Part shown: positions 2,574-30,471 of the stretch, in pieces
Position numbering within the stretch: the stretch's first letter is position 1
Layout of the letters: each line of letters starts with the position of its first letter
IMG/VR virus record: IMGVR_UViG_3300031577_000010
Span: 1-30,854 of that record
Source: a virus
Taxonomy: Duplodnaviria > Caudoviricetes
Length of the DNA stretch: 30,854 nt
Direction: 5' to 3' (one strand)
Program-made: the position numbers and the translations under genes
Notes under the pieces: model-generated
The model's database searches: none
Seen by the model: the letters and a program-made list of their open reading frames with translations, nothing else
Told to the model about the DNA's origin: nothing

Positions 2574-2586
2574 TTATGTTCACATT

Positions 2587-2605
2587 TTGGACACAAAATG
2601 TCCAA
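2587..2605. promoter_or_regulatory. Palindromic motif copy TTGGAC-N7-GTCCAA
   Basis: ttggac acaaaat gtccaa, immediately before ribozyme 1. Confidence 0.75.
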
Positions 2606-2679
2606 TTTCGCAGAGTAACGGCCTTCGGGCCGGTAATGCGGGGCCGGGATTCCCGGCGCGGTTACAACCCCCGCCAATT
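2604..2679 (+). ncRNA. Twister ribozyme, type P5 (copy 1)
   Basis: GCA-GAGUAA, P1 CGGCC-UUCG-GGCCG, G-U^AA-UGC-GG, P3 GCCGGG-AUU-CCCGGC, P4 GCGG-UUACAACCC-CCGC; pseudoknot T1 GUAA:UUAC. Matches the twister core (UAAUGC...GCGGUUACAA..CCGC...GCAGAGU) in permuted order. Predicted cut at 2634/2635. Confidence 0.85.
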
Positions 2680-2695
2680 AGGAGGAATGTTTATT

Positions 2696-3538
2696 ATGTC
2701 AGGTTTAGCAACTCGCTTTGGAAAAAATTCTTTTGGTTTTCGGTCTAACAACCCCCTTACAGACGAACAAATTTTTGGTGTTGCTCCTAGCATATTTGCA
2801 GCAGGAAAGCACGAATCACGGTCAGAGCGCTACACCTATATTCCTACTATCGATGTTTTAACAGGTCTACGGAAAGAAGGTTTTCAGCCTTTCATGGTTG
2901 CGCAATCCCGCTCCCGGATCGAAGGAAAGTCAGAATTTACAAAACACATGCTGCGGCTGCGGCAAGGCGGTCAAATTACTAACCCTGAAACGTTTGAAAT
3001 TATCTTGATTAATTCTCACGATGGAACATCCAGTTATCAAATGTTAGCCGGTGTATTTCGCTTTGTGTGTCAAAATGGCATGGTATGCGGTGAAACCTTC
3101 GAAGACTTGCGCGTCCCGCATCGCGGGAACATTGCGGAGAATGTAATTGATGCCGCCTATACAATTTTAGACGACTTCGAAGCGGTTCAAAGCTCTATGG
3201 ACGTTATGAAGGACACGCCGCTCGCATTACCTGAGGCGCAAGCATTCGCAGAGGCTGCACTGTCACTAAAATATGATGAAGATTCCGCGCCGGTTATACC
3301 GGATCAACTTTTAACGGCTCGCCGGTATGAGGACAGAGGGAAAAACGACCTATGGACTACGTTTAACCGGGTACAAGAAAACTTATTAAAAGGCGGCTTG
3401 CGCGGGCGGTCTACTAACGGCAGGCGGACCACTACCCGCGAAGTAACCTCAATAGATAACAACGTTAAATTAAACAGGGCGCTTTGGATCCTATCAGAAA
3501 AAATGGCCGGTTTAAAATCAGGCGCTATGGCAGTCTAA
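2696..3538 (+). CDS. DUF932 family protein (YafZ/YubP-like)
   Basis: MSGLATRFG..., APSIFA..KHESRSERYTYIPT, KHMLRLR, INSHDGTSSYQMLAGVFRFVCQNG, LWTTFNRVQENL. Start moved to ATG 2696 (RBS AGGAGG 2680-2685); the upstream in-frame extension reads through the ribozyme. Confidence 0.92.
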   Translation: MSGLATRFGKNSFGFRSNNPLTDEQIFGVAPSIFAAGKHESRSERYTYIPTIDVLTGLRKEGFQPFMVAQSRSRIEGKSEFTKHMLRLRQGGQITNPETFEIILINSHDGTSSYQMLAGVFRFVCQNGMVCGETFEDLRVPHRGNIAENVIDAAYTILDDFEAVQSSMDVMKDTPLALPEAQAFAEAALSLKYDEDSAPVIPDQLLTARRYEDRGKNDLWTTFNRVQENLLKGGLRGRSTNGRRTTTREVTSIDNNVKLNRALWILSEKMAGLKSGAMAV

Positions 3539-3612
3539 ATTTCGCAGAGTGACGGGGCGCAAGTCCCGGAAATGCGGGGCCGGATATCCCGGCGCGGTCA
3601 CAACCCCGCGAA
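3538..3612 (+). ncRNA. Twister ribozyme, type P5 (copy 2)
   Basis: GCA-GAGUGA, P1 CGGGGC-GCAA-GUCCCG, G-A^AA-UGC-GG, P3 GCCGG..CCGGC, P4 GCGG-UCACAACC-CCGC; T1 GUGA:UCAC covaries with copy 1. Predicted cut at 3570/3571. Confidence 0.85.
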
Positions 3613-3629
3613 GAAAGGTAGGCGATTAA

Positions 3630-4412
3630 ATGCAGTATGAACACATGAACGCCTTGAAATGTCCGGACATTGAAAAATTCTTTGGCGATAAAAATTATAT
3701 TGCCGAAGAAAAATTTGACGGTGTTCGCCTTTTCTATGAAGGCGGCAAACTTTTTACCCGGAACGGCAAAGAAAAAGCCACTAAATTACCTAGTATTATT
3801 CAAAGGCTGGAAGGTATACCCGCGATCCTTGACGGTGAACTTTACATTCCTGGCAAAACTTCAAAGGACATTACTAAATTCATTTCGTCGAAAAAATTAG
3901 TCGAATCAAACGAACTATGTTTTGTCGTTTTTGACGTGTTGGAGTATAAAAATATTTCGTTAGCGCCGAGCGCGTGGATTGACCGCCGCACAATTTTGGA
4001 ACGCCTTGCAGCTGAGTACCATCTATCTATTTCAGCCTTTTCAGAAGACAAAGAAAGCCTTTTAGGACGTGTGCAGCTGCGCGGCGGCGAAGGCGTAATG
4101 TTAAAGAATATTCGCAGCTGTTATATTCCCGGCAGCAGGCCTGCGAATACCTGGTACAAAGTCAAAAAGCACGATACAACGGACGTAATAATCACAGGTT
4201 TCACACCTGGAACTGGCAAAAACGAAGGGTTAATAGGCAGCATTAACTTTCAGAATGGACGCTGCAGCGGCATGACAGACGAATTCCGCACCTGGGCTAC
4301 TTCGCACCAAAACGAGTTAATAGGCAGGACTATGGAAATCGGCTATATGGAACGGACTGAGGCGGGCTGCTATCGCCACCCGGTATTCATTCAAATTAGG
4401 GAGGATAAATAA
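3630..4412 (+). CDS. Minimal ATP-dependent DNA ligase
   Basis: Motif I EEKFDGVR, III LDGELY, IIIa VFDVL, IV EGVMLK, V WYKVKK, followed by an OB domain ending RHPVF..IREDK. Confidence 0.93.
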   Translation: MQYEHMNALKCPDIEKFFGDKNYIAEEKFDGVRLFYEGGKLFTRNGKEKATKLPSIIQRLEGIPAILDGELYIPGKTSKDITKFISSKKLVESNELCFVVFDVLEYKNISLAPSAWIDRRTILERLAAEYHLSISAFSEDKESLLGRVQLRGGEGVMLKNIRSCYIPGSRPANTWYKVKKHDTTDVIITGFTPGTGKNEGLIGSINFQNGRCSGMTDEFRTWATSHQNELIGRTMEIGYMERTEAGCYRHPVFIQIREDK

Positions 4413-4414
4413 AA

Positions 4415-5317
4415 ATGAAAAAGACAATTACAAATATGCTTGGATTATCAAAAAATATTATCAATCCCTTCCGGAATACCATTCATTTTTATTCTGACAA
4501 TGGTAATATTATTGCCCATAGTACTAATTTTGCGATTGACGTGAAATTTAATTGCGGGGTAACTTCTGCGGCTTTTAATATAGTCGTCTCCTCCGCTGAA
4601 GTTAGGAAGACGCTAAAACTATCTAGTTATCCTGAAATAGTTTATAGTCAGCAAGGGCTAGCAGTTAACGGCGTGTACTTGCAGCCTGTAAAATGTCTCT
4701 ATCCAGAATGGGAGCTAGAAGAAATGCGCGAAGTAACAAAATTAGATAAAAATAGTATTGATGTTATTACCACGGCCAGCAAATACGCTGCAATAGATGA
4801 TACTCGGCCATTGTTTCAGAATGTTTACATTGACAGTAAAAACATCGTTGCTACTAACTCACATATCCTTTATACAAAACCACACACTCTAAACATCGAA
4901 AAACCTTTGTTTATTGACGTTAACGCCGTTCCTTTTTTGACTGACGGTACTTTATACGCTAATAAAAGCAAATGTAAATTAGAAAATAGTAATGTGGAGA
5001 TTATTTGGCATATGACGGATAGAGTTTATCCAGACTATAGCCGAGTCATCCCGACAGAGGGCGAAGTAATAGATTTTGTTAACGATAAGGCGTTGATGAA
5101 TAGCGTAAAATTGCAAACAGTACAGGCAGAATTAAAAGATAAAACCCGTAAGCCTATTAATTTTATCAAAGATGCTTTTTTTAATGGCGACTATGTGCAA
5201 AAGGCACTTAAAACTTTACCAACTACTTTTACGCTGAAATATAAAAGTAACCATGCACCGGTATTATTTGAAAGTGCCGACGAAAAAATAGTTTTAATTC
5301 CCGTTAAGGTCAGCTAA
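4415..5317 (+). CDS. Divergent DNA polymerase III beta-clamp-like protein
   Basis: AAIDDTRPLFQNVY, VATNSHIL, YPDYSRVIP, FNGDYV..AL and C-terminal PV...VLIPVK resemble DnaN signature segments. Confidence 0.7.
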   Translation: MKKTITNMLGLSKNIINPFRNTIHFYSDNGNIIAHSTNFAIDVKFNCGVTSAAFNIVVSSAEVRKTLKLSSYPEIVYSQQGLAVNGVYLQPVKCLYPEWELEEMREVTKLDKNSIDVITTASKYAAIDDTRPLFQNVYIDSKNIVATNSHILYTKPHTLNIEKPLFIDVNAVPFLTDGTLYANKSKCKLENSNVEIIWHMTDRVYPDYSRVIPTEGEVIDFVNDKALMNSVKLQTVQAELKDKTRKPINFIKDAFFNGDYVQKALKTLPTTFTLKYKSNHAPVLFESADEKIVLIPVKVS

Positions 5318-5472
5318 TGGACACCGAGTATAAATGCCCATTTTGTGGTAAAACACTAGGAAAGGGCCATATACAGCAAGGCTATATAGTGATAAAATGT
5401 AGCCGATGCAAGCAATTCATAAATGTGCCGGGAACGTCTTTGAACGTCAAGAGCGCTAAACATTTTGTTTAG
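5317..5472 (+). CDS. Com-family (Mu Com-like) zinc-ribbon regulator, 51 aa
   Basis: Below the ORF-track cutoff: MDTEYKCPFCGKTLGKGHIQQGYIVIKCSRCKQFIN...; CxxCGK.L...IKCxRC pattern; TAATG coupling to the previous gene. Confidence 0.75.
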   Translation: MDTEYKCPFCGKTLGKGHIQQGYIVIKCSRCKQFINVPGTSLNVKSAKHFV

Positions 5473-5902: not shown

Positions 5903-6748
5903 TCAGCATTCACGGTACGGCGTAGGTGATTTACTAATTTCGAATCCTTTTATTTTCTTAACGCTAAACAGCATGCTCGCAGATTTAGATGCCATTTGCT
6001 GCTGTGGATTTGGACCAACTTTTAATTTTTTAAAGGGCCATTCTTCCGCTGTATATCCAAGCGGTATTTCTAAATAAGGCACTAAGTTATGTTTTCCAGG
6101 TCGTAAATTAAATCTTGGATCTGTTATAGGAATTGAATCAAGTGATATGATTCTCCATTCTTTCTCTTCTGACCAACAAGGCTCTTTAATTATTGCGGCT
6201 ATAATTCCAAGTTTCGTTGGAATCTTCTGCCAAAGTATTTTTTTGATTTCCGCTTGGTCAGTTTCTTTTGTCTTAACTTCTTTGTAGTCACTATAAGCTG
6301 TTTCCAGAAACTCTTTTATTAGTCGTTTCTGAACTTCAATTTCGTATTGGCAAGGATAAAGGTGAAATTCGTGATTTTTCCCAATAATATTAAGTAATTT
6401 ATTAGAGTCAAACCCCAGAGAATAGCCACCAGTTGACGGACAATATCCTCTCCATTGACTTAATAAGTCTTCGCTTTCACTCAAAGAAAATACAAATCTA
6501 TTAGTTTCCTTAATTTGAAACGCAAACTCTTTTACTAATAGAATAAAATTTTCTTCAAATTCTCTAGGATCCAACTTATTATTTAAAAGGTTAAAGGCAT
6601 AATAAAATTCAGCTGAATCATTTAAGTAATGTATATTAGTTGCCCATATAGACGTGTTTGTTATAATACCAAATAAACCAGCTGGAGATGTATAATGATA
6701 AAGAAGCTCAGGGGGTTTTGTATCAATAATAGTATTTAATAGACTCAT
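5903..6748 (-). CDS. DUF2971 family protein (moron, possible defence effector)
   Basis: LYHYT, IWAT...LND..E, FSLSE..DLLSQWRGY...GYSLGFD, K...WSEEKEWR, VGP. Start moved to ATG 6748 (RBS AAGGAG); AT-rich. Confidence 0.85.
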   Translation of the reverse strand: MSLLNTIIDTKPPELLYHYTSPAGLFGIITNTSIWATNIHYLNDSAEFYYAFNLLNNKLDPREFEENFILLVKEFAFQIKETNRFVFSLSESEDLLSQWRGYCPSTGGYSLGFDSNKLLNIIGKNHEFHLYPCQYEIEVQKRLIKEFLETAYSDYKEVKTKETDQAEIKKILWQKIPTKLGIIAAIIKEPCWSEEKEWRIISLDSIPITDPRFNLRPGKHNLVPYLEIPLGYTAEEWPFKKLKVGPNPQQQMASKSASMLFSVKKIKGFEISKSPTPYREC

Positions 6749-6821
6749 AATGACTCCTTTCGAAATTACCTTACAGAAAGCTTCCATATTTGCACTTGCT
6801 TTTCCTGCCCTACGAAGCTGA

Positions 6822-7052
6822 CTATTTTTCCAGAAACCATTTACCTTCGTCCTCAAACAAAAATACCTGTTTACCCAGGATCTTGCAGGCATATCTTATA
6901 CCAAGTCCACCGCCACGCAAAGAAGCCGCCCGTCGTACGTCAATAAGTCGATCTATCTCGAATACCCGGCCATCTTCCCATTTTAGGGATAATGGTCTAA
7001 TAGAGCCATCAACATTATGCCTTGCAATAACCTCAACAAATATTTTTATCAA
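6822..7052 (-). CDS. Small SOS-regulated protein of the type found beside Y-family polymerases in clostridia
   Basis: VEVIARH..DG.IRPLSLKWEDGRVFEIDRLIDVRRAASLRGGGLGIRY pattern; RBS GGAGGGG; LexA box upstream. Confidence 0.75.
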   Translation of the reverse strand: MIKIFVEVIARHNVDGSIRPLSLKWEDGRVFEIDRLIDVRRAASLRGGGLGIRYACKILGKQVFLFEDEGKWFLEK

Positions 7053-7071
7053 TTTGCCACCCCTCCATTTC

Positions 7072-7114
7072 GGAACATATGTTCTATTTTAAACCTGTCA
7101 TAATCACAAATCAA
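7072..7114 (-). promoter_or_regulatory. SigA promoter with Gram-positive LexA (SOS) box
   Basis: GAAC-ATAT-GTTC at 7073-7084 directly downstream of TAAAAT (7086-7091), 17-nt spacer, TTGATT (7109-7114). Confidence 0.85.
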
Positions 7115-7238
7115 TAGATAGAAATTCAAAGCTTACTGCTCGTCCTCTCCGCGCAGCAATGTTCCGCTGCCGCTTCACCTTTATTCCAAAATCAAAATCC
7201 CTGTATTACTTGCTTCACAACCCTTTTCTGGTGCATCT

Positions 7239-7290
7239 AAACCTACTAACAATCTACAAGCGGCCCACAAACCTACCTATAATCTACCTA
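7239..7290. repeat. Direct repeats AAACCTAC-N4-AATCTAC x2 (30-bp period)
   Basis: Copies at 7239-7257 and 7269-7287, giving four AA(C/T)CTAC units. Confidence 0.7.
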
Positions 7291-7323
7291 CAAAGAAAGA
7301 CCTCGGAAAGCCGAGGCCTTTCT
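7290..7323 (-). terminator. Intrinsic terminator ending the ParM-FtsK-relaxase module
   Basis: Minus strand AGAAAGGCCTCGG-CTTT-CCGAGGTCTTTCT-TTG directly after the stop at 7327. Confidence 0.8.
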
Positions 7324-7326
7324 GTT

Positions 7327-7518
7327 TTATTTCGTTGTCAACCACTGTGCAACATATGAGACAGCAGATAAAGCAGTCGTCCATTTAAGTAATTGCCGGT
7401 ACGACTCTGGGACCATGAAAATGAATAGCCCATATATAACTAAAGTAATAAACACTTCAAGGAATACATCGCCGAAACCGCTTAAAAACTGATTTGCCTT
7501 CTCCCATCCGTCAATCAT
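7327..7518 (-). CDS. Small two-helix membrane protein
   Basis: Hydrophobic segments VFLEVFITLVIYGLFIFMV and WTTALSAVSYVAQWL; overlaps the upstream stop. Confidence 0.75.
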   Translation of the reverse strand: MIDGWEKANQFLSGFGDVFLEVFITLVIYGLFIFMVPESYRQLLKWTTALSAVSYVAQWLTTK

Positions 7519-7757
7519 TTTCCAATTCCGAACACTGCTAACACGGCCACTAAAGCAGTCAACGCTACAGCCGCTAACGACGCTACACTTCCTAACATCC
7601 CAACCGCGTCGGCCAGCTCTGCGTACCAGCCTTTTTTAGAAGCTGTAAGAAGCGCCTTTAGCAAAGCCACCGTTAATCCCGTTATCCCTATTCCGATGCA
7701 CATTGAAGCGGGAGTGCCCGGTTTAACAAATTGCCATATAAATTCACTGTATGACAT
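7515..7757 (-). CDS. SpoIIIAC/SpoIIIAD-like membrane protein
   Basis: GLTVALLKALLTASKKGWYAELADAVG...AVF aligns without gaps to B. subtilis SpoIIIAC as I recall it (GIVVAFLHTILDQMGKKEYAQWVTLLG...AVF). Confidence 0.6.
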   Translation of the reverse strand: MSYSEFIWQFVKPGTPASMCIGIGITGLTVALLKALLTASKKGWYAELADAVGMLGSVASLAAVALTALVAVLAVFGIGK

Positions 7758-8356
7758 TTCTCCATATCCCCCATCATTTTTTCATAAGATACGATTTCAA
7801 ACTCTAACTTTGATTTTACTTTTGGCGGTTTTTCACTAACTACCAAGATTTTCGGGAACCGTTCAACGTATTTCGTCCACCACTGGTTAGCATATCCGTC
7901 CGTGTTATACCATTTCTCGTATTTCTCCGCTTTGTCAAACTTATTAAAACCCCGATCAAATTCAATAAAGGCGAACCGGTATTTTTCAGTTACCGTGTTA
8001 AAAATACCGATCAGTCCATCAGGTCTTAACACATTGTAATTAATCTCATAATTGAAGGAATAAACCTTTTCCCAGCTTCGCAGATTTGATAATAACCATA
8101 ACCTAATCCAGTTCATTCCGACTCTGTGCTCCTGTTGTAAAGGTAGTTTCGAGCTGTAATAGCAGTAGGGTTGCCCAAGGTTTTCTCTGTGCCGTAAGAC
8201 TTTCCCAGCCTCTGACAATCGCTGCATTCTCTTCTGTGCCATATGCAGCGATGGAAAAAACATTTTAGTCAATTGAAATATATCTAAGCAACCCCAATCG
8301 TTTAATGTCTCTTGGATAAGCCTATCTCGGTAACAGCTTTTTTGGTGATTGTTCAT
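7688..8356 (-). CDS. Replication-relaxation (Replic_Relax, MOB_L-type relaxase-like) protein
   Basis: N-terminal wHTH (QL..MFF....AQKRMQRL...G), H.V..N, RPDG, FIEFDRG, K.EKY, FPKILVVS; adjacent to FtsK. Confidence 0.8.
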   Translation of the reverse strand: MNNHQKSCYRDRLIQETLNDWGCLDIFQLTKMFFPSLHMAQKRMQRLSEAGKVLRHRENLGQPYCYYSSKLPLQQEHRVGMNWIRLWLLSNLRSWEKVYSFNYEINYNVLRPDGLIGIFNTVTEKYRFAFIEFDRGFNKFDKAEKYEKWYNTDGYANQWWTKYVERFPKILVVSEKPPKVKSKLEFEIVSYEKMMGDMEKCHTVNLYGNLLNRALPLQCASE

Positions 8357-9428
8357 TATGCCATATCACCCCCTGCCTACCCTGCAACAGCAAGCGGGCC
8401 TCGGCTACCGGCAAATAGGGCGCTTGGACTTCCAGCTGCCTTTCCCATTGATAAATAGCCCGACCTTTAATTTCAGGTAGCATAGCTGCGGCGTCATTGT
8501 CTAAAAGCATTCGGGAGTTCACCGCGTCCCGTGTCCTGAATACCAAACTAGCATTTATTAGCGCGCGTGATGAAGTCCACCCTGGCCACATATCGGCGCT
8601 GGGACGTTGTGTACTCAGTATCGCAGTAAACCCTGCAGCTCTACCTAACCTTAAAGCGCGGTTGACTAACGTTTGGCAAGTTTCATCTTGAAGTTCTGCT
8701 AATTCATCGATCACAAGCAGCATAAAAGGCATAAATCCCTTAAATTCTTGAATTTTGACACACCCGGCGCGCTCTAAAATGTCTAATCGCTTATCAATTT
8801 CCTTGTTAATCGCTGTTAATACTTCGCGAGCTTGAGGGATATCCGTTATAACAAGAGCGTGGTTCTTCAAGTATGTAAATTCCAGGCGTTTCATATCGAC
8901 AATGACGCAATAAGCGTCCCTCAATAGAAGGATATTACACACCAAGGAGTGAATCGCGTTACTTTTCCCCCATCCAGGCATTCCTGCAATCATTAAATAA
9001 GGGCTATCTGCTAAATCCCTGACAACCGGGCCAATTGCTGATTTACCGAAATACACAGGCAAGAAAGCTCCCTCTAAATCTGTAGGCTCATATGGTAATA
9101 TCATGGGAATCGGTTCGCTAAGTACGGTTAATATAATCGCTTTCCCCCTTTTTTCAATTTCTACGCAGCCTGCTGCAGCATCCGCGAAATAATGTTTTTT
9201 ACTCTCTAAATCCCGGTAAGCGATCCCCGGTGGCATATGAAACACAAAGTAATGCTGACTCTTATTTTTATTATGCGAAATTACAAGAGGTCTTGGTTCC
9301 TTTGGCCATAAAGCTTCTACCGTATCAAGTATAGCGGCTGAAACTTCGTTACCCTTTCTGTGGCGCCAGGCCCGTTGAACAGTGGACACAACCGGGGCTA
9401 ACATACTATTATCTTTGTTTACCACCAA
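8322..9428 (-). CDS. FtsK/SpoIIIE-family ATPase (no N-terminal TM domain, no gamma domain)
   Basis: Walker A GMPGWGKS, VDMK..E, Walker B LVIDELAEL, LGRAAG, STQRP, A..LP..KGRAI. Confidence 0.93.
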   Translation of the reverse strand: MVVNKDNSMLAPVVSTVQRAWRHRKGNEVSAAILDTVEALWPKEPRPLVISHNKNKSQHYFVFHMPPGIAYRDLESKKHYFADAAAGCVEIEKRGKAIILTVLSEPIPMILPYEPTDLEGAFLPVYFGKSAIGPVVRDLADSPYLMIAGMPGWGKSNAIHSLVCNILLLRDAYCVIVDMKRLEFTYLKNHALVITDIPQAREVLTAINKEIDKRLDILERAGCVKIQEFKGFMPFMLLVIDELAELQDETCQTLVNRALRLGRAAGFTAILSTQRPSADMWPGWTSSRALINASLVFRTRDAVNSRMLLDNDAAAMLPEIKGRAIYQWERQLEVQAPYLPVAEARLLLQGRQGVIWHNEQSPKKLLPR

Positions 9429-9649
9429 TCGTCACCCGCTTCCTTGATTTCAATTTTGGGCACAGTTACCGTGCAGCCAGCCATTTTTTGAGACACAATC
9501 TTTTCAATCAGAGCTGTAATACTGTTATCCGGCTCAATTTCTTGCCGGATCCGCGTTTTAACCCACTCGCTAAAATTACCTATACGACTAATAAATTCAA
9601 CAATATCATGATCCTTTGTCGAAAGATAAACCGGCTTTATTTTCCCCAT
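9419..9649 (-). CDS. Small ParR-like (putative RHH) DNA-binding adaptor
   Basis: Directly downstream of parM; beta-strand IKPVYL followed by helices (D.DIVEFI...NFSEWVK..IR). Start ATG 9649 after GGGGTG. Confidence 0.55.
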   Translation of the reverse strand: MGKIKPVYLSTKDHDIVEFISRIGNFSEWVKTRIRQEIEPDNSITALIEKIVSQKMAGCTVTVPKIEIKEAGDDWW

Positions 9650-10452
9650 CGTTGACACCCCAGCCAATAGTTGCCTCTCGCGTTAGCATTAATTGGGTCC
9701 TCGACAATTCGGGCTGTAGGATAATATTCTTGCATCCAGTTTCCCATTGCCAAGGCTCCGCCCCCGGCAAGCAAGATTTTCTCAGATTTTACATTAAGCC
9801 ACCGGCGTGATAAGTCAGCATAAACGCGTCTAGCCAATTGCTCTGCCGCGGCATCTGTCCCAGCGTTCTCAATCTCGATACAGCCATAATTAAGCGTAAA
9901 GCTATCAACATCAATAAATTTGCCGTTTTTTATAGTCAGTGCATTTATTGTGCGGCTTCCTAGATCAATAACCCGGCACATTCTACCCGGATTATTTGCC
10001 CAATAAGCGCCGCCGCCCTCAATTGTTATCCCTATGTCATCTTCGCCTAGCGCTATTGTTGAACGAGTCCCATTTACCTCAACATCGTACCTACCCGACA
10101 ATAACCGAATGTACTCTTGCTTTATGTCCGGAGTATGTTGCTCGACCGGCAACCCCGTTACTAATTTGATTCGCTCACCTGGTACCGCCATTAATGCTAG
10201 TGCGGACAGTGTGAGTATTTTAGTTTCTTCGTGAATCTTACTTTGAGTCACCATTTCACGTCGGAAGCGACTCTCATTAGCCGCCAGGTCGCCTACAAAA
10301 TACTTTTCGTTATTGATAGAAATGCTGTAGTTTCCACCTTCACTGACGTTCCTTTCGCGCCACTCGCCAACTACAGCCGGAATACTCAAAGCTCTTTGAC
10401 CGTTAAAAGCTTTGACTGCTCGGCGACCGCAGTCAATAGATACTACCTGCAT
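9637..10452 (-). CDS. ParM/StbA-family actin-like ATPase
   Basis: SIDCGRRAVK, YFVG..A, LVTGLPV, EGGGA, VIDLGSRTIN, LLAGGGA, P.NANARG actin-fold motifs. Start ATG 10452 after GGGGGTG. Confidence 0.92.
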   Translation of the reverse strand: MQVVSIDCGRRAVKAFNGQRALSIPAVVGEWRERNVSEGGNYSISINNEKYFVGDLAANESRFRREMVTQSKIHEETKILTLSALALMAVPGERIKLVTGLPVEQHTPDIKQEYIRLLSGRYDVEVNGTRSTIALGEDDIGITIEGGGAYWANNPGRMCRVIDLGSRTINALTIKNGKFIDVDSFTLNYGCIEIENAGTDAAAEQLARRVYADLSRRWLNVKSEKILLAGGGALAMGNWMQEYYPTARIVEDPINANARGNYWLGCQRWGK

Positions 10453-10464
10453 CCTTGCACCCCC

Positions 10465-10495
10465 TATATAGTTTTGTATATAGCTCACTATATAG
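10465..10495. repeat. Three TATATAG repeats at a 12-bp period upstream of parM (parC/operator candidate)
   Basis: Copies at 10465-10471, 10477-10483 and 10489-10495. Confidence 0.65.
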
Positions 10496-10550
10496 GTATG
10501 CATCAGAGACTATTTATTGCGTGTCCACTACCAAATTTATTTTTAATCAA

Positions 10551-10584
10551 ATAAAAAAGATGGCCTGCATTATCACAGGTCATC
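10551..10584 (-). terminator. Intrinsic terminator after the XRE gene
   Basis: Minus strand GATGACCTG-N8-CAGGCCATC-TTTTTTAT. Confidence 0.7.
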
Positions 10585-10776
10585 CTCATAAAACAATTCT
10601 TCAATTGGTATATTTAATTTTTTTAATATCTTCCAAGTTGATTCTAAATTGGGTTGTGTTCTATTTAATTCCCATTGATTGTATAAGTGACGGCCAACTC
10701 CTAGATGTTCTGCAAATTCAGTCTGGTTCATTTCATGTTTATGTCGAAAACTTTTTAATTTGTTTTTCAGTTCCAT
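10573..10776 (-). CDS. XRE-family HTH regulator
   Basis: NKLKSFR...MNQTEFAEHLGV.R..YNQWE....QP......I...L....EELF. Confidence 0.9.
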   Translation of the reverse strand: MELKNKLKSFRHKHEMNQTEFAEHLGVGRHLYNQWELNRTQPNLESTWKILKKLNIPIEELFYEDDL

Positions 10777-12751: not shown

Positions 12752-12869
12752 TGTGTTCACTCCTTTGCCTTAGATAAGCTAGCCAATAGCCCTCTTGTCT
12801 ACCTACTGCAAACCCTATAACAAACCCCGTCAGCAATCCAAACAGTGCTACTATTATGAGATCAACCAT
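12744..12869 (-). CDS. 41-aa single-TM protein
   Basis: MVDLIIVALFGLLTGFVIGFAVGRQEG...; RBS AAAGGTG; fills the gap in the operon. Confidence 0.55.
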   Translation of the reverse strand: MVDLIIVALFGLLTGFVIGFAVGRQEGYWLAYLRQRSEHNG

Positions 12870-13524
12870 CACTATCACCTTTCTTCAAAATAATAACCTT
12901 CCGTTTTTGTACTCCAAAGTTATCACAGTCATCTTTTGATTCCATGAAAACGTCTAATTTATATCCTTTAATAGCCCCGCCTGAATCCTCTACCACTCTT
13001 TCGCCGATTCCATCAATAATAACCCGGCTACCGGGCGGCAGTACTCGAAAGTCTGCCGCTATTGTTCTGCCTTCCGTGGCCCGCGATCCGGTCGCCGTAA
13101 TACCATAACCTTCATCCCCTGGCCGTTTCCCGGTAGACTCTACGCCATTGTTGTAGGCTGTCACCTCAAAAATGAGGCAATCGTTACTACTACTATTGCT
13201 ATCCCAACGATTATGTAGGCTGTATCGACTCGTTTCTCTGCTTTCTTGGCGCGGACGCTCCATAAATTCGTTAATTCTTTCCATTCGCCCGCTTGACTCT
13301 CCCAGAAATTTTTCAAGTCTGTCACTACAGTTATATTTTTCGACGTCTTTTCCAAAGCCGATTGTAAACATTGAACCTCTTTCGCTAACCGATTGATAGT
13401 TTTGCGCTCCCAAGTTTTCCGTAAACTCTTGTTTTTGTTCATGTAGCCGCCCATAAAACACGCCTCCCATTATTATCATTACAGCGACCAACCCCAGGTT
13501 AAATCGGTTTTTTAAAAACTTCAT
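12862..13524 (-). CDS. 3D-domain (cell-wall-acting, lytic-transglycosylase-like) protein with N-terminal TM
   Basis: VTAY, GITATG, TIAAD..VLPPGS.V.I, VEDSGGAIKG..LDVF. Start uncertain (13524 or 13539). Confidence 0.85.
   Translation of the reverse strand: MKFLKNRFNLGLVAVMIIMGGVFYGRLHEQKQEFTENLGAQNYQSVSERGSMFTIGFGKDVEKYNCSDRLEKFLGESSGRMERINEFMERPRQESRETSRYSLHNRWDSNSSSNDCLIFEVTAYNNGVESTGKRPGDEGYGITATGSRATEGRTIAADFRVLPPGSRVIIDGIGERVVEDSGGAIKGYKLDVFMESKDDCDNFGVQKRKVIILKKGDSDG
13161..13454 (-). CDS. Coiled-coil protein with C-terminal TM, nested out of frame inside the 3D gene
   Basis: GGGAGG RBS 8 nt upstream of ATG 13454; heptad pattern followed by AYIIVGIAIVVVTIASF. Confidence 0.55.
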   Translation of the reverse strand: MGGYMNKNKSLRKTWERKTINRLAKEVQCLQSALEKTSKNITVVTDLKNFWESQAGEWKELTNLWSVRAKKAEKRVDTAYIIVGIAIVVVTIASFLR

Positions 13525-13756
13525 CCGGTAAACTTTCAAGTAAATGTTTCAATTCATTAATTTTTTCATAGAGCGCTTCAATCGTTTTTGGAATCTTTAT
13601 ATCGTGTTCAATCAGCCCTTTAATTGCAAGACGATAAGTTGGATAATACCCGATAACTTCTACTCGGTCAGCTCCCTTTTTGCTAGTAACTTTCTTTTGT
13701 AGAATCACGTTGCACGGGTCCGTTGTTAAGAAATATTCGTCATTTATTTTTATCAT
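13499..13756 (-). CDS. Hypothetical phage protein
   Basis: IKINDEY.LT.D..NVILQKK...GYY pattern common in Firmicutes phages; RBS GGAGGT. Confidence 0.75.
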   Translation of the reverse strand: MIKINDEYFLTTDPCNVILQKKVTSKKGADRVEVIGYYPTYRLAIKGLIEHDIKIPKTIEALYEKINELKHLLESLPDEVFKKPI

Positions 13757-14929: not shown

Positions 14930-17375
14930 TCTTCTGATCCCTCATTTCTAACCATTTTTCAATTGACATTTTATCCCCCCATCGGTAGCCTACAGACGCT
15001 TCCGCTTCAATCGGTAACGGAAAGTCGGTTAACGGCGGACGCTCCATGATTTCCTTAATAAGTTTGGCAGCCGGAATTACCACATTCGGATCATCGTCAA
15101 GCTCCATCAATATTTCATCATGTATTTGCCCAATCATATCTGTTTTTTGATGCTGCAGAATACCACCTTTACCAATCATTTCATAAACCTCATTTTGGCA
15201 GCGCTTCATGATATCAGCAGCTGATCCCTGAATTGGGGTATTTGCAGCTCGCCGTTCATCCCCCGATTTCGCGCGCCGGTCATAGCTGTTAATATTGGGA
15301 AGCATACGAATATAACCGTAGATAGTTTGCACGTATCCTTGTTCGCGGGCTTTTAAGGCTATCTTTTCTTGAAATTCAGGTATCCTTTTGTAGGTGTTTT
15401 TTACAGCGTTTACAATCTTAGCGCATTCGTCTAAGGTCTTACGGACTTTGTAATCCGTTTTAATAGTCTTCTGAAGCGCGTGTTCCGTGCCGCCGTAGCA
15501 AATTCCAAAGTTACCGGCTTTGGCGTGTGTTCTTTCCACTTTTGTAATTTCAGCTTCAAGTTTGCCGGTCATTGTTGACGCAGTTTTCCGGTGAAGGTCG
15601 CCCCCATTTTTAAATGTCTCGGTCATTGTTTCGTCACCCGAAGCCCACGCCATTAAGCGAAGTTCAAACCCGGAGAAGTCAATAAAGAATAAAATTTTCC
15701 CTGCGGGGGCACGGTAAAAATTACGGATACCAAAAACATCGTTATCGGTTCTCGGTACATTCTGGCCGTTGGGGTGGAAGCTGTTGAGCCTACCCGTCTC
15801 AACCCATTGTGAGTAGCCCGCGTGGATTCTTCCGGATATCGGGTTAAGGTATTTACTACGCCCGTCAATGTGACTTGATAGTAGTGTCGTATATGTCTGC
15901 ACCTTCTGAACAAGTTCTAAAAGTTCAAGAATATATTCCCTATACAAATACTCGGAACGCCCTTCAATTACTAAATGCTTTTCGTGCGATGGTACTAGCC
16001 ATGCTTCCTCTTTTAAATCGTGCAATTTGTTTTCAACCATGAATGTCATATCAATTAGTGCTTCTTCATCAAGTGAAGGTTCGCTAGTTTTTTCTGATAA
16101 CCGGGCCGCGGGCGCCTTTAAAGTATCAAAGAGAAAAGATTTTACGCTACCAGTTTTCCCCGTCTTCCCAGGCTGTAGATCAACCCCGAATCGTTCACCG
16201 AGTTTTTTAATTCCGTCTATAGCTTCATCCCTCATGGTTTCAGCCTCTAAACGTTTCTTGTTTGCAAGCTCCATATCCCAGGACATTCCCCAATATTCCA
16301 TTAATCCAATGACCCTTGTAAACGGCATTTCAATATTGTGTAACCATTCATCATATTTGGGTATTTGTTTTGCGATTTCGCGCCAGTATAAATAATGTTG
16401 TACGGCGTAGTCCGAGTCCTCCGCGCTATAAACTACAGCTTTTGGATCATCCGAAGATATTTCGCTGAAAAATTGAACATGACGCTCTTTAAGCAATTCT
16501 TCGAACGGTGTCATTTCTACCCCGAATACCTCTTTAGTCATTGGCTTTAAGCCTTTTCCCTCGGCTGGCCTTTTAGGGTCGGCGATACGTTCTGGAGCTA
16601 CAACTTGCAGGCAGCGCACCCACATAATAAGCGGATCAGCAACCGGGGCCATAATGTACATGCCAATGGCCGCGGTTTGTTTAGTTTCGAACGACATATT
16701 TACAGCTATCTTAGTTATTTTTCGGTTTTTGAACAAGCGCTCATTTAAGATATCAAATACTTCTTTGCGTCGGCCTCGCTCTAAAGACCGGGTAAATTCT
16801 TTTACTTGATCTTTTGTTTTACCCATAGCCCGCGCTACATTGCAGATTACGGTTTTCGCATTATAAACTTTCTCCCCAGGGTGCTTTATAAATATTACCC
16901 GTGCTTCATGGGGTGCAGCGCTTAATGACAATGTGCAGATTTCCGACTTCCAAGGGTCTAACGGAGCTTTCAGGAAGTCGTTTGCCATTGCCTTATCATA
17001 CTTTGCCTGTGCAGCGTTCAACTCGCTATTTACGCGTTTAATCGTTTTTTTGTCCTCGAATTCTTCAGCTCGTATTAAATCATCTTGTAACGCTAATATT
17101 TCGCCACGAAATTCATCATGTCTTGATTGCCACATTTCCCGGTATTTATCACTTATTGTAGTTTCATAGTCAAATCCACAAAGCCCCGTTTCCTCGCAAC
17201 GTTTCAGGTATGCTATTAACTCAACATCTGTAGTAATTACCTGGTAGTCTTTCACTTGTTGGCCAGGTTTTTCGGGCCACGTAATATCAGAAACGCTTTT
17301 CTTTTTCGCTATTTTAGGCTTACTAAGTTCTTTTCGCGCAATGCTATTATTTTTAAAAAAATTACCTATCGGCAC
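14919..17375 (-). CDS. Family A DNA polymerase with 3'-5' exonuclease domain
   Basis: Exo FDYET and YSAED; TGRLNS..PNGQNVP; motif A DFSGFELR; motif B R..AKAGNFGICYG; NTPIQGSAADI; motif C QIHDE. Start likely GTG 17375 (RBS GGGAGG). Confidence 0.95.
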   Translation of the reverse strand: MPIGNFFKNNSIARKELSKPKIAKKKSVSDITWPEKPGQQVKDYQVITTDVELIAYLKRCEETGLCGFDYETTISDKYREMWQSRHDEFRGEILALQDDLIRAEEFEDKKTIKRVNSELNAAQAKYDKAMANDFLKAPLDPWKSEICTLSLSAAPHEARVIFIKHPGEKVYNAKTVICNVARAMGKTKDQVKEFTRSLERGRRKEVFDILNERLFKNRKITKIAVNMSFETKQTAAIGMYIMAPVADPLIMWVRCLQVVAPERIADPKRPAEGKGLKPMTKEVFGVEMTPFEELLKERHVQFFSEISSDDPKAVVYSAEDSDYAVQHYLYWREIAKQIPKYDEWLHNIEMPFTRVIGLMEYWGMSWDMELANKKRLEAETMRDEAIDGIKKLGERFGVDLQPGKTGKTGSVKSFLFDTLKAPAARLSEKTSEPSLDEEALIDMTFMVENKLHDLKEEAWLVPSHEKHLVIEGRSEYLYREYILELLELVQKVQTYTTLLSSHIDGRSKYLNPISGRIHAGYSQWVETGRLNSFHPNGQNVPRTDNDVFGIRNFYRAPAGKILFFIDFSGFELRLMAWASGDETMTETFKNGGDLHRKTASTMTGKLEAEITKVERTHAKAGNFGICYGGTEHALQKTIKTDYKVRKTLDECAKIVNAVKNTYKRIPEFQEKIALKAREQGYVQTIYGYIRMLPNINSYDRRAKSGDERRAANTPIQGSAADIMKRCQNEVYEMIGKGGILQHQKTDMIGQIHDEILMELDDDPNVVIPAAKLIKEIMERPPLTDFPLPIEAEASVGYRWGDKMSIEKWLEMRDQKNAR

Positions 17376-17994
17376 TTTCCAACCTCCCTTCAAATACTTC
17401 CCTTGCTTTCCGTCGCATTCTTTGTTTTGCATTATCCACCTGTTTCCAAGTTAAATGACGCCTTGTTTCTATTTCGGATGGTTTAAACCCGGCCATCGTA
17501 TCACGGAACACGGGTATTTCAATGCCCCGAAGTACATTTTCTATGTCAGCTACAGTTTCTTTAACAATTAGGTTAGCTAAAACGACGTCCTCTTGCACTT
17601 TTTTATCAATTATTTTATAAAAACTTGTATCGTCATTATCTCGTCCGTACCGATTTGATACAATTTTAGCATCAAGTGACACACAACCTTGATTCGCGCG
17701 GCGTTTATCGTAGTGCATGTTACGAACAAGTGTAGCAAGTCTGTAATACGCGTTATCCCATACCCAGCTAAATGCTTTCATCCCTTTTTCTGGTTTATAT
17801 GTGTTCACGCTTAAAACGCCATATATTACGCCTTCCTGCACCATATCTGCAAAATCATAGCAACTCGGACTTTTATACCAATTTTTGATAAGCCAGCTTG
17901 CTACTAAATGTTGTAGTTGTATTGCAATACGTTCCAGCGCTTGTTGATCCCCGTTTTTCGCTTTAGGTACTAAGTCTTCAAAATCAACCTTCAT
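17362..17994 (-). CDS. Sigma-70-family factor, SigH-like
   Basis: AKNGD..ALE, DMVQEG..G....V.TY, SLD, and a C-terminal KQVDNAKQRMRRK resembling SigH KSIDNALQRVKRK. Confidence 0.8.
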   Translation of the reverse strand: MKVDFEDLVPKAKNGDQQALERIAIQLQHLVASWLIKNWYKSPSCYDFADMVQEGVIYGVLSVNTYKPEKGMKAFSWVWDNAYYRLATLVRNMHYDKRRANQGCVSLDAKIVSNRYGRDNDDTSFYKIIDKKVQEDVVLANLIVKETVADIENVLRGIEIPVFRDTMAGFKPSEIETRRHLTWKQVDNAKQRMRRKAREVFEGRLESADR

Positions 17995-27933: not shown

Positions 27934-28176
27934 TTACTTATCATCATCCTTTATCATTAAACGTGTAAGAAAAACCTTTCCTTGAACTGCGTCATCAATA
28001 GCCACTTCTTTATCTATCCATTCACCTTTATCTGATAAATAGCAAACTAGAATGTTTAGCGGACCACTTTGCTTGATAATAGCGTCTTGATTAATACCTT
28101 CAGTCATAAGCCAGACTGCACTGCCAACTTTATAAACGTCAGTATCAAAAATGGGGCTATTTCTAACACCTTTCAC
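27934..28176 (-). CDS. Hypothetical protein (paralog of 27607-27903)
   Basis: GVRNSPIFDTDVYKVG. Confidence 0.75.
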   Translation of the reverse strand: MKGVRNSPIFDTDVYKVGSAVWLMTEGINQDAIIKQSGPLNILVCYLSDKGEWIDKEVAIDDAVQGKVFLTRLMIKDDDK

Positions 28177-28814
28177 TAACTCACGACACTCCTTCCATTT
28201 ACCTGCCTTACCGAAAAGCTCTTATGCCCAGCTGCAGCAAGCGACTCGGAATGAGTGATAAGGATTATTTGCCGGTTAAATTTCTCGCTGTATTGCCGCA
28301 AGAAGTAGGCTACATTTGGGGCATACTCGGCACTTACCATCTTGCCGATTTCATCTAAGAGCAAAGGGCCACGGTTACCTTCCAGCTCTATAATTGCAAG
28401 CCTTAGGGCAAGCGTTACCACGTCAACCACTCCACCCCCTTTCGAATAGTCGGGCGGTTCCAGCCTCACGGTCACGCCGTCCGCTTCTATAAAATATTGA
28501 CACTCCGGGCGATTCGCGCGAACAGTAAGCTCCAGCCAAAATTTATACCCCACATCAAATACCACGGAGAGCGCCGACGTTACTATTTCTTCGATTCGGA
28601 ATTTCGCTTGTTTTCTCGCAAAGTCGCTTGTGAGCTGTAGGAGTATCGAAACCTTATCAAACGTTTCAATATCTGCTTTAATCTTTACAGCCTTATTGCA
28701 AGCATCATCGAATTGTGTTCTTAACAGATCCCGCGCCCCGACCATCGAATCATAGTGGCTTCGAACTAACTTTAATTTTCTTTCTATGTTATTGAACCGG
28801 TAGCCGTTAGCCAT
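28176..28814 (-). CDS. SbcC/Rad50-like ATPase, C-terminal half
   Basis: Signature-like SKGGG...LALRLA, Walker B LLLDE, H-loop IILITH. Confidence 0.85.
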   Translation of the reverse strand: MANGYRFNNIERKLKLVRSHYDSMVGARDLLRTQFDDACNKAVKIKADIETFDKVSILLQLTSDFARKQAKFRIEEIVTSALSVVFDVGYKFWLELTVRANRPECQYFIEADGVTVRLEPPDYSKGGGVVDVVTLALRLAIIELEGNRGPLLLDEIGKMVSAEYAPNVAYFLRQYSEKFNRQIILITHSESLAAAGHKSFSVRQVNGRSVVS

Positions 28815-28816
28815 TT

Positions 28817-29050
28817 TTAAACCTCCGGAATCAGCGCTTCGAGTTTTTCAAAAAGGGCACTCTGTTCATCCCTCAGCTTTTGCATTTCCACGTCGATTGT
28901 ATTAGGAGTAACCCCAGCTGCAGCCATATCCTTTTCAACCTCAGCTAATTGCTCCTTGGCCGCTGTGTGTTGTGTCTCGGCAACCGTTAGCGCCTTTTGC
29001 GCTTTCTCGTATTTCGACTGAAGTGCCTCAATCCGCATTTTATCGTCCAT
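28817..29050 (-). CDS. Short coiled-coil protein between the SbcC halves
   Basis: Helical hairpin with a G.TP turn. Confidence 0.75.
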   Translation of the reverse strand: MDDKMRIEALQSKYEKAQKALTVAETQHTAAKEQLAEVEKDMAAAGVTPNTIDVEMQKLRDEQSALFEKLEALIPEV

Positions 29051-30449
29051 GACAATCCTCCTTAATTTTTTGACCGCATAGCGGACATTTATTTAGGGAC
29101 TTCCAACAAGCTTCTAGTTCATCGTAAGCCGCGTCCCGATTAGCTAATTGACGCCAGCTTTGGTTGAAAAGCTGTCGTTCAGCATTCATAGCCTGGTACC
29201 AGCGAACGTTAAGCAGTTCCAGCTCTGAAAGCCTTTTCTGAGAGAGGCGTAGAGCGTCGAAAAAAGTTGGAGCAGACATAGCACCATTGTTTTTAGTCAT
29301 AATTTGTCCAAATTCTTTGCATAACGAAATAAGGCGATTTCGCCGACTACTAATATTTACTAGCGTTGATAAGGCTTCATCAATAACCCGCAAACGGGTT
29401 ATTGGTTCCCGGCATTCATTTACGATGGACATTTTATGTCCAATTTTATAGTAAAAATTTGTATTTTCTAGGTTTTTTTGGTATGATTCTAATAGATTTT
29501 TAAGCTGCAAAAAATTAAATGTGCAATCCCTTAACCTCGGCAGGTACACGGATGCCGTTTTAATATTTTGGCTATGCTTTAAAATCTCACCTAATTCACC
29601 GAGTCGCTTAGTTAGCGACGAATGCCTTACCTCCATACCTAGTAGCGTGTCGGAGCGCTGCTGGGTATTTTTTAGTTGCCCCAGGTCTTTTTCAGCTTGT
29701 GCTAAAGGTAACGTCAAAACTTCTATAACGGCCCAGGTATCATCATACTTTTTCTGCCACTCATGATGTTTGTTGTTTAACATTTCCAGTGCTTCAAAAT
29801 GTACGGCTGTAGCTTCTAGCCTTTCTTTTAGCCCTTCACAAATCAATAGCCGTGCTTCGATATCCTCCAATTTATCGAAGGCTTTTAATTGTTCAACGAT
29901 TTCTGCTTGAAGCTTTTCTACAGCTTTTCGCTCTCTACTTAAGGCGTGGGTTTCCTGGGACGCAGATTTCAGCGCTTTGTCTACTATTTCAGCTTCAGCA
30001 AGCTTACCCAATACTTTAGCCCCAGCGCTTCCCGGCTCACTTAATAGAAATGGCGTGTCCAATTGAAAAGCAAAATTAAGAGCTGTAGTAAAATCCCCGA
30101 ATATCGTTTCCCGGATTTCTAACATTTCCTGAACTTCTACAGGTACTTCCGCCTTTTCGTAGGCTGTAATCTTTCCCCCTTCCTCAATCTCATAATTCGT
30201 TTTAGCCCCTTTTCGCTGTTTCGTGACACGGTTACCACCTGACATAATAATTGTAACTTCGGCGAATCCTACAGCCTTATTAACGAAAGAATCGCCAGCC
30301 GGTTCCCCAAACGCAAGCCACCGGAGCGCACGGATAATTGCGGTTTTACCTGAGTCGGTTGCGCCGGTAATGACATTCAAGTTTTTGTCTAGGTTTACCG
30401 TTGTGTCTTCATGGGATTGAAACCCTTTGATAATGATTGTTCGAATCAA
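29040..30449 (-). CDS. SbcC/Rad50-like ATPase, N-terminal half ending in a zinc hook
   Basis: GFQSH, Walker A GATDSGKT, Q-loop FQLD, coiled coil, C-terminal CPLCGQ. Start likely TTG 30449 (RBS AGGAGG). Confidence 0.88.
   Translation of the reverse strand: MIRTIIIKGFQSHEDTTVNLDKNLNVITGATDSGKTAIIRALRWLAFGEPAGDSFVNKAVGFAEVTIIMSGGNRVTKQRKGAKTNYEIEEGGKITAYEKAEVPVEVQEMLEIRETIFGDFTTALNFAFQLDTPFLLSEPGSAGAKVLGKLAEAEIVDKALKSASQETHALSRERKAVEKLQAEIVEQLKAFDKLEDIEARLLICEGLKERLEATAVHFEALEMLNNKHHEWQKKYDDTWAVIEVLTLPLAQAEKDLGQLKNTQQRSDTLLGMEVRHSSLTKRLGELGEILKHSQNIKTASVYLPRLRDCTFNFLQLKNLLESYQKNLENTNFYYKIGHKMSIVNECREPITRLRVIDEALSTLVNISSRRNRLISLCKEFGQIMTKNNGAMSAPTFFDALRLSQKRLSELELLNVRWYQAMNAERQLFNQSWRQLANRDAAYDELEACWKSLNKCPLCGQKIKEDCHGR
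29293..29443. repeat. Two intragenic copies of the palindromic motif
   Basis: TTAGTC-ataattt-GTCCAA at 29293-29311 and ATGGAC-attttat-GTCCAA at 29425-29443. Confidence 0.65.
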
Positions 30450-30471
30450 GTTCTTACCTCCTTTCAAAATT

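Follow-up and report, generated by a model that had tools for sequence, protein, structure and literature searches.

A phage operon with a soluble FtsK/TcpA-like motor as a candidate pump for DNA into the forespore

The window, virus record IMGVR_UViG_3300031577_000010 taken at its full length of 30,854 nucleotides, is a 30.8-kb partial phage genome. On its minus strand, from 7327 to 10452, six open reading frames (ORFs) overlap in a chain. This six-gene operon is a variant of a known but unexplained conserved phage cassette, in which a soluble FtsK/TcpA-like ATPase stands next to a MOB_C-like protein and small membrane proteins. The cassette occurs on hundreds of phages and plasmids of Bacillus, under labels such as 'replication-relaxation' and without an assigned role. 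Judged from the sequences, the cassette may be a pump that moves double-stranded phage DNA out of the mother cell and into the forespore, a reading that we place slightly below an even chance.

A 'DNA translocation operon' has been described in 0305phi8-36 (orf200/201/203/207), SPO1, GBSV1 and Gamma/Cherry/Fah (Pathria et al. 2012, PMC3357382). Thus the module is not novel as such: a relaxase, a soluble ATPase, a membrane protein and an actin were already recognized together in Bacillus phages. In both operons a protein related to MobC of CloDF13 lies by an ATPase without a membrane domain, accompanied by a separate membrane protein and an actin-like gene; both are phage-borne and lack a type IV secretion system (T4SS). 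The published operon is dispensable for plaque growth of 0305phi8-36, and cell-to-cell transfer in biofilms was proposed for it (PMC3357382). The window differs in having a SpoIIIAC-family pair, whereas the membrane protein of the published type is VirB6-like (orf203) or VirB2-like, and the available part of PMC3357382 contains no sporulation link, cis site or nuclease-less forms. Nor did the other literature searched report a test of the cassette in sporulation, a relationship with SpoIIIAC, a cis element or nuclease-less forms, although subscription papers and supplements could hold such reports. What is added here is the host association, the SpoIIIAC-family pair with its M23 fusions, the cis element, the nuclease-less subclade and the clade-limited promoters.

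The cassette in spore-forming hosts

The gene spoIVA (TIGR02836) was used as the marker of sporulation. It is present in 270 of the 401 genomes of the Bacilli sample; 54 genomes of the whole sample have a match to the relaxase-like (MOB_C-like) protein. Among the best 30 loci, 26 have the motor alongside, and all 26 lie in spoIVA-positive genomes. With the centre genome left out, the pair of pump and partner occurs in 25 of 269 spoIVA-positive genomes and in none of 131 spoIVA-negative ones (p=3.4e-5); weak relaxase-like matches in spoIVA-positive genomes are outside this count. Three spoIVA-negative Bacilli genomes have a relaxase-like match, two of them without a motor and the third on a contig that is too short, and all four readable matches in spoIVA-negative genomes lack an adjoining cassette-type FtsK. 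In the Negativicutes the figures are 4/56 spoIVA-positive against 0/114 spoIVA-negative genomes (p=0.011). The restriction of FtsK and Replic_Relax pairs to spore-formers, for which the initial annotation had proposed a survey, is thus borne out in both class samples. Hosts of the named genomes have spoIVA in nine cases out of ten, the exception being a metagenome-assembled genome (MAG) named Archaeoglobus.

One Bacillus-type query matched 347 plasmid records, of which 345 fall in ten listed genera that we take to be all endospore-forming, and 103 of the 105 phage records matched by another query are Bacillus or Geobacillus phages. Homologous pairs are present in GBSV1, Gamma, Cherry and Fah. 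The cassette is found across unlike phage life styles, including integrating phages with their own integrase and the phi29-like phage DLc1. In this protein-primed phage the cassette has three genes (L005, 3609-5588), and its relaxase-like gene is 61% identical to the copy of a temperate siphophage, suggesting recent transfer between phage types.

Architecture of the operon

As the initial annotation described, the six overlapping, co-oriented genes lie between two hairpins. One, with 13-bp arms, is a terminator at the operon end (7294..7323); the other, terminator-like with a T tail (10564..10579, minus strand), closes an upstream XRE gene (10573-10776). Terminator-like sites in the region are not above chance (3 counted, 4.1 expected). 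A Pfam scan identified ALP_N (E=1e-22), FtsK_SpoIIIE (E=3e-13) and Replic_Relax (E=2e-7) in the operon, and gave no match for the small ORF with a ribbon-helix-helix-like (RHH-like) product or for either small membrane ORF. Gene order is kept in locus L001, where FtsK, the relaxase-like protein and the membrane proteins are 60-88% identical, and the order is therefore not due to chance. The reported absence of a T4SS also held: no VirB4, the ATPase that marks a conjugative T4SS, and no other T4SS family was matched by Pfam or PHROGs among the 45 ORFs of this partial genome.

The soluble motor

The motor (8322..9428, minus strand) is a protein of 368 residues. Its structure model, built from 89 sequences, has a predicted local distance difference test score (pLDDT) of 92 and the FtsK alpha+beta fold; Walker motifs are present. 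The N-terminal helix is amphipathic, with a hydrophobic moment of 0.66. Neither the N-terminal membrane domain nor the C-terminal gamma domain of FtsK was found by Pfam or in the model, confirming the earlier statement that this FtsK has no membrane domain of its own. TcpA of pCW3 ranks first and FtsK next in sequence and structure searches (for TcpA, E=1.6e-25 and template-modeling (TM) scores of 0.61-0.73). The best NCBIfam match is Streptomyces TraB, and a VirB4-like NCBIfam model is matched only negligibly, at 15.7 bits where the cut-off is 325. According to a review, TcpA has more in common with FtsK than with VirD4 and possibly transports double-stranded DNA (PMC12857230).

The alpha+beta fold, Walker A/B, TQRP and arginine-finger motifs are shared with TcpA, TraB and FtsK/SpoIIIE. 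Unlike these, the window motor has neither an N-terminal membrane domain nor a gamma domain, both of which the partner genes may supply. Overall, the cassette resembles FtsK/SpoIIIE reassembled from three genes, with a loading site of its own. A complex prediction for FtsK with the membrane protein TM-A scored 0.00, gives no verdict and is used neither way.

The MOB_C-like partner

The gene behind the motor (7688..8356, minus strand; PF13814) encodes a winged helix-turn-helix (HTH) and a PD-(D/E)xK nuclease with the catalytic residues D113/E132/D134/K142/Y146. Of these, D113, E132, K142 and Y146 are invariant or near-invariant among 42 aligned homologs. A restriction-enzyme-like PD-(D/E)xK core is a property of the MOB_C family, whereas MOB_L belongs to the HUH family (PMC12857230, PMC6736028). 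No HUH triad is conserved in the alignment of the relaxase-like homologs, and the MOB_L identity suggested by the initial annotation was rejected in favor of the MOB_C signature D..ExD..K..Y. The HTH matches PagR at E=0.19 only, a single-sequence fold gave no usable model (pLDDT 31), and the window protein as a single query had no match in viral contigs or INPHARED. The gene is present behind the motor at every close FtsK locus (L007-L017, L078-L129, L131, L132) and absent at distant FtsK loci (L018-L077, L130, L133-L157) and in SP-15 (L003). In a Pelosinus MAG (L008:7073-8023) the protein is naturally fused to TM-A.

The mobilization modules of the MOB_C family (CloDF13 MobB/MobC and pAD1 TraX) resemble the cassette in the winged HTH with PD-(D/E)xK core, the D..ExD..K..Y motif, the adjacent ATPase and nearby direct repeats. 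They differ in that their ATPase is membrane-bound and of the VirD4 type, whereas that of the window is soluble and of the FtsK/TcpA type. Furthermore, the cassette is carried by phages of spore-formers and has lost its nuclease in a conserved subclade. The nuclease core is missing from 10 of the 59 distinct copies, these ten being 106-185 residues long; four further, full-length copies fail the strict catalytic-motif pattern. Differences within seven short-copy pairs are mostly at third codon positions; the adjoining FtsK and two intact pairs show the same bias. Most motors next to nuclease-less copies have intact Walker A/B and TQRP motifs. Because the gene is conserved although its nuclease core is deleted, nicking looks dispensable in the subclade, and DNA binding is probably the indispensable job there. 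Together with a motor closest to TcpA/FtsK, this speaks against the earlier proposal that the module moves nicked DNA.

The site behind the operon

Behind the last gene, at 7150..7290 (plus strand), lies a candidate cis site, which comprises a pyrimidine tract, a CCTGTA-type box and repeats of the form AA(A/T)C(C)TAC at 7239, 7251, 7269 and 7281. It may serve as an origin of transfer (oriT)-like site or as a loading site for the pump. Many loci have three to five short repeats with an 11-13-bp period behind the last gene. Of 54 downstream regions, about a dozen of which are close kin, 17 contain such an array; the corresponding counts are 2 in 324 shuffles and 8 in 170 control gaps. An alignment of fifteen chosen regions extends over a pyrimidine tract, an AT-rich box and the repeats; the element occurs in both orientations relative to the operon. 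No array was obvious by eye, unscored, behind the Bacilli cassettes.

TraX, a member of the MOB_C family, binds to a set of five direct repeats that lie 70-120 bp away from nic (PMC12857230). The winged helix of the MOB_C-like protein is the likely binder of the array, because the array is present at loci without an RHH gene before the motor (L007, L104). The type of repeat clusters on the relaxase-like tree (7 changes compared to 14.6 when shuffled, for 33 loci labeled by eye), but no co-evolution is claimed because kin share labels. Purine motifs like the FtsK orienting polar sequences (KOPS) or SpoIIIE recognition sequences (SRS) behind the cassette (23/54 compared to 292/1080 shuffles) are too weak to claim.

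The small membrane proteins

TM-A (7515..7757, minus strand) is a two-helix membrane protein of 80 residues, from a family related to SpoIIIAC/AD (PF06686). Its start has a ribosome-binding site and is kept in L001. TM-B (7327..7518, minus strand, 63 residues) is a paralog of TM-A, with a profile probability of 95%, and is not fused to an M23 peptidase in the window. Most loci have one or two small hairpin genes behind or before the motor-partner pair.

A TM-A profile of 39 sequences aligns with a profile of five host SpoIIIAC sequences over 50 gap-free columns with a probability of 59-69%. The score of 26.9 compares to at most 14.8 across 100 column shuffles. As a scale for these probabilities, SpoIIIAC matches the two SpoIIIAD repeats at 86% and 33%, and unrelated hairpins (holin, pilin-like, BtCS33-type) match SpoIIIAC at 0-1%. 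PF06686 is the Pfam family matched by most members of each set (3/39, 3/18 and 9/150). The nine matches among the 150 TM-A relatives are at E<=0.02, two of the 150 are above the Pfam cut-off but of unknown gene context, and no other family repeats. The window TM-A and TM-B are below the Pfam gathering score and have no PF06686 match. The window TM-A appears linked to SpoIIIAC only via its family, and 4 of 300 shuffles score as high against either hidden Markov model. The match of TM-B to SpoIIIAC is weak (18%), and those of TM-A and TM-B to the SpoIIIAD profiles are not significant. The ESM Atlas, taken as a lead only, places a SpoIIIAC/AD cluster first for TM-A at 0.86, with 14% of its members carrying the family, and has nothing for TM-B.

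Among the relatives, TM-B runs into an M23 peptidase with zinc motifs at 12 loci (all four scanned pass Pfam), TM-B/TM-A fusions occur, and many TM-A carry a signal-peptide-like leader. The SpoIIIA-SpoIIQ channel (PMC2703783) contains the same PF06686 two-helix hairpin, and its two SpoIIIAD repeats are resembled by the tandem paralogs and fusions of the cassette. However, the cassette has the hairpin parts only, below the Pfam cut-off, its M23 zinc motifs are intact and it is coupled to a DNA motor; the window has no eight-gene spoIIIA operon. The architecture of SpoIIQ resembles the arrangement of membrane protein and M23 peptidase in the cassette relatives.

Bacilli copies mostly have a different membrane protein, which is weakly TrbC/VirB2-like (three of four tested, E 0.002-0.008) and is annotated likewise in PMC9658697. 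No bridge was found between the SpoIIIAC-like and pilin-like types (profile probability 0-1%). At two Bacilli loci an M23-peptidase-like ORF was noted by eye behind the pilin-like gene (L241:2548-2770 and L242:2538-2760).

The head of the operon

The first gene encodes an actin-like protein of the Alp/ParM family (9637..10452, minus strand, 271 residues; Pfam ALP_N, PHROG 691) with intact actin motifs. The listed ORF begins at 10503, but the homologs begin at ATG 10452, which was adopted as the start. The following gene (9419..9649, minus strand, ORF to 9667) encodes 76 residues, matches phrog_8400 at E=1.5e-5 only, and probably has an RHH fold; the product may be a small DNA-binding protein that serves as a ParR-like adaptor or a relaxosome-type auxiliary. 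The initial annotation treated ParM as a core component. It heads the cassette at only 5 of 59 distinct loci, and by eye at L260, and RHH-like small ORFs often stay before FtsK at loci without ParM. The ParM-RHH partition unit is thus optional in the cassette family; its linkage to the cassette is also seen in 0305phi8-36, SPO1 and Izhevsk. Within the 51 bases above the actin start lie a candidate -10 box and, over this box and the leader, three near-palindromes of 8 bp (CTATATAG type) with a 12-bp period (10464..10495). They are a candidate parC or operator for the RHH protein, and were not seen in L001. An actin-like gene, a small RHH-like gene and short upstream repeats are also features of the type II (ParMRC/Alp) partition systems of plasmid prophages. 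Unlike these, the window unit is co-transcribed with the pump and is optional in its family.

A candidate mother-cell (sigmaE/sigmaK)-type promoter (10492..10526, minus strand; GGACA.GCAAT..., -10 box GCATACCTAT) precedes the actin gene. Similar boxes precede it in L001, L011, L084 and L129. Promoters were scored with a two-box matrix trained on 18/19 host spoIVA/spoIIIAA upstream regions, which agrees with the published mother-cell consensus of an ATA or AC -35 box and a CATA..T -10 box (PMC3789822). At 12 bits or more, the matrix finds 8 of 57 automatically called cassette heads and 12 of 610 other operon heads. At 10 bits or more it finds 11 of 46 cassette heads, placed by hand after the motif had been seen, and 21 of 920 shuffles. 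A post hoc pattern, GACA.GCA..CATA, occurs seven times in 1.0 Mb of loci, six of them at cassette heads and one in the window (10526). The -10 box alone is barely enriched (7/46 compared to 75/920 at 8 bits or more), and the count of sigma-70 promoters in the region is at chance level. As far as these scores can tell, the clostridial/Negativicutes clade is enriched in mother-cell-type promoters; the site in the window is weak, and none was found in the Bacilli copies.

Proposed mechanism and alternatives

From these parts we infer the timing of expression, all of the protein contacts, the substrate and the direction of transport. Transcription would take place in the mother cell, from a promoter of the sigmaE/sigmaK type. 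The MOB_C-like winged helix would bind the repeat array behind the operon and load the hexameric motor on phage DNA, replacing the missing gamma domain, and the nuclease, where kept, would open the DNA at that site. Both SpoIIIAC-family hairpin proteins would form a passage in the septal or engulfing membrane or dock on SpoIIIA-SpoIIQ, and would be joined by the wall peptidase in some relatives. The motor would then pump double-stranded phage DNA into the forespore, and the phage would outlive the mother cell inside the spore. The optional ParM-RHH-parC unit would carry DNA to the pole. With clearly less confidence, a tentative extension is that phages and plasmids share one 'spore-entry' machine, in which the motor, a domesticated MOB_C loader and SpoIIIAC-derived or pilin-like parts together pump double-stranded DNA of the element itself into the forespore, perhaps docked on SpoIIIA-SpoIIQ.

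Phage entrapment in spores has long been known and was attributed to host segregation sequences, and ParM of SPO1 has been named in connection with it (PMC12991052). The gene spoIIIE is among those enriched in phages of spore-formers, where segregation genes may aid entrapment (PMC10294663), and a possible role in 'regulating sporulation' has been mentioned (PMC4113786). If the forespore is actively loaded, a widespread gene set would be explained and phages and plasmids would have a route of persistence in spores. A 'spore-entry' machine would amount to conjugation-like transfer within a single sporangium, and for SpoIIIAC/AD it would imply a role, open to testing, as a pore or docking site. 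The cis element and the nuclease-less variants are specific handles for testing, and the cassette is carried by phages usable in B. subtilis (268TH007, phi18-2, 019DV002 and SPO1).

Several observations weigh against transport into the forespore. The association with spoIVA is not significant in a broad phylum sample (7/325 compared to 0/75, p=0.23), and kinship, the larger genomes of spore-formers and profiles built from spore-formers make the p-values of the host counts overstate independence. The MAG named Archaeoglobus (L013) contains an intact cassette and integrase genes but no spoIVA; its neighboring genes resemble a Bacillota mobile element, and misbinning is possible. Records named as Staphylococcus, Listeria and Stenotrophomonas phages also match; the SpaA1 gene is 100% identical to that of Bacillus phage BceA1. 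The window promoter scores only 7.6 bits, with a spacer that falls one base short of the host spacing, none of 18 Bacilli cassette heads reaches 8 bits (8 further loci, coding or too short, are not counted), and the FtsK gene of phage Fah is a 'delayed' gene of the lytic cycle (PMC4113786). The initial annotation called the product of 7515-7757 SpoIIIAC-like. This stands for the family, which beats all of the 100 shuffles, but not for the divergent window copy, which matches the family built without it at 74% and SpoIIIAC directly at 2.9%. The Bacilli-type membrane protein has no profile match to SpoIIIAC at all. Finally, no SpoIIQ-side partner is encoded in the window, and passage across two membranes is unexplained.

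Mobilization or minimal conjugation, the main alternative, would use many of the same parts. A MOB_C relaxase, an oriT, an RHH auxiliary and a TcpA-like coupling protein would send phage DNA to neighboring cells, either by borrowing a mating channel or by a contact of the TraB type, and pilin-like membrane proteins and the wall peptidase would take part. All of these parts have conjugative relatives, RHH proteins are usual auxiliaries (PMC12857230), and the cell-to-cell transfer proposed for the published operon (PMC3357382) is of this kind. The rank of TcpA as nearest structure, the top match to TraB, the TrbC/VirB2-like proteins of Bacilli and the leader on many TM-A fit it as well. It is nevertheless judged unlikely. 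The cassette was not found in any of the 245 genomes without spoIVA in the two class samples, in whose lineages conjugation is common, and the nuclease-less subclade is conserved. Furthermore, the best family for the window-type membrane protein is SpoIIIAC and not VirB2, mother-cell-type promoters occur in the window's clade, and VirB4 is missing from the window.

Vegetative maintenance, by replication initiation, dimer resolution or clearing of phage or plasmid DNA off the division septum, seems improbable. The linkage to ParM-RHH, a repeat array that could be replication iterons and the frequency of the cassette on Bacillus plasmids speak for it, and for plasmid-like prophages the cassette has been read in this way (PMC9658697, PMC11526630). 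However, the cassette is also present in integrase-bearing phages and in a protein-primed phi29-like phage, in the window it accompanies a full DNA polymerase/primase-helicase set, and maintenance leaves the SpoIIIAC-like proteins, M23 fusions and host restriction unexplained. Host restriction, promoter and SpoIIIAC likeness would be explained equally well by sabotage of sporulation, in which the feeding channel is poisoned by SpoIIIAC mimics and forespore DNA is damaged or withdrawn by motor and nuclease, so that the cell is kept for lysis; phage sigma factors reportedly alter sporulation. This appears a shade more improbable still, since a cis site next to the operon suggests that the substrate is the element's own DNA, nuclease loss is tolerated and resident plasmid or prophage copies would be costly in spore-formers. 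An anti-phage or superinfection defense of the HerA and PD-(D/E)xK nuclease type is very improbable. It would account for a motor with a restriction-like nuclease, for weak structural matches to HerA defense complexes and for matches of the FtsK domain to the PADLOC mad8/SspH models. PADLOC has no match for the nuclease or the membrane proteins, its models thus matching only one of the two partners, and this reading was rejected; the nuclease-less subclade, cis repeats and wall-peptidase fusions would also be left unexplained.

Genome setting and neighboring genes

The window contains genes for a terminase small subunit, DNA polymerase A and a primase-MCM protein, along with SbcCD-like genes and one sigma-like gene. 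The primase-helicase shares 56-58% identity with its counterparts in Bacillus phages phBC6A51, PHBA67-T and vB_BboS-125. The nearest FtsK copies in named genomes, with 36-49% identity, are in Dethiobacter, Pelosinus, Desulfosporosinus and Pelotomaculum records, and a host in the Negativicutes or Clostridia is likely. The sigma-70-family gene (17362-17994, minus strand) lies between primase-MCM and DNA polymerase. SigH is its best match, in line with the initial annotation, but at 38 bits against a cut-off of 212 it is weak evidence for a sporulation link. This gene could itself drive the cassette.

A 3D-domain (SpsC-like) wall-active protein (12862-13539, minus strand) is encoded 2.4 kb upstream of the cassette. 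In L099 a 3D gene is directly behind the cassette, and the window protein might supply a wall-opening step. Immediately upstream of its promoter the cassette has an XRE gene of 60-70 residues, closed by a terminator, in the window (10573-10776, minus strand) and in L007, L008, L104, L108, L111 and L120.

Downstream of the operon, a 76-residue ORF (6822-7052, minus strand) is almost the same in type as a gene behind DinB in L001 (2233-2472), although the window has no DinB. An SOS-box-like palindrome, CGGAACATATGTTCT, was noted by eye near this ORF, at ~7071-7085. A DUF2971 protein (5903-6892, minus strand) has weak PADLOC PDC-S31 matches (E 9e-8) and is possible defense cargo. A block on the opposite strand (2576-5472, plus) encodes DUF932, an ATP-dependent ligase, a sliding-clamp/resolvase-like protein and a zinc ribbon. 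The SbcC/Rad50-like ATPase (28176-30467, minus strand) is split over three ORFs of 475, 77 and 212 residues, and the split is common to relatives, because each of the three ORFs has its own PHROG.

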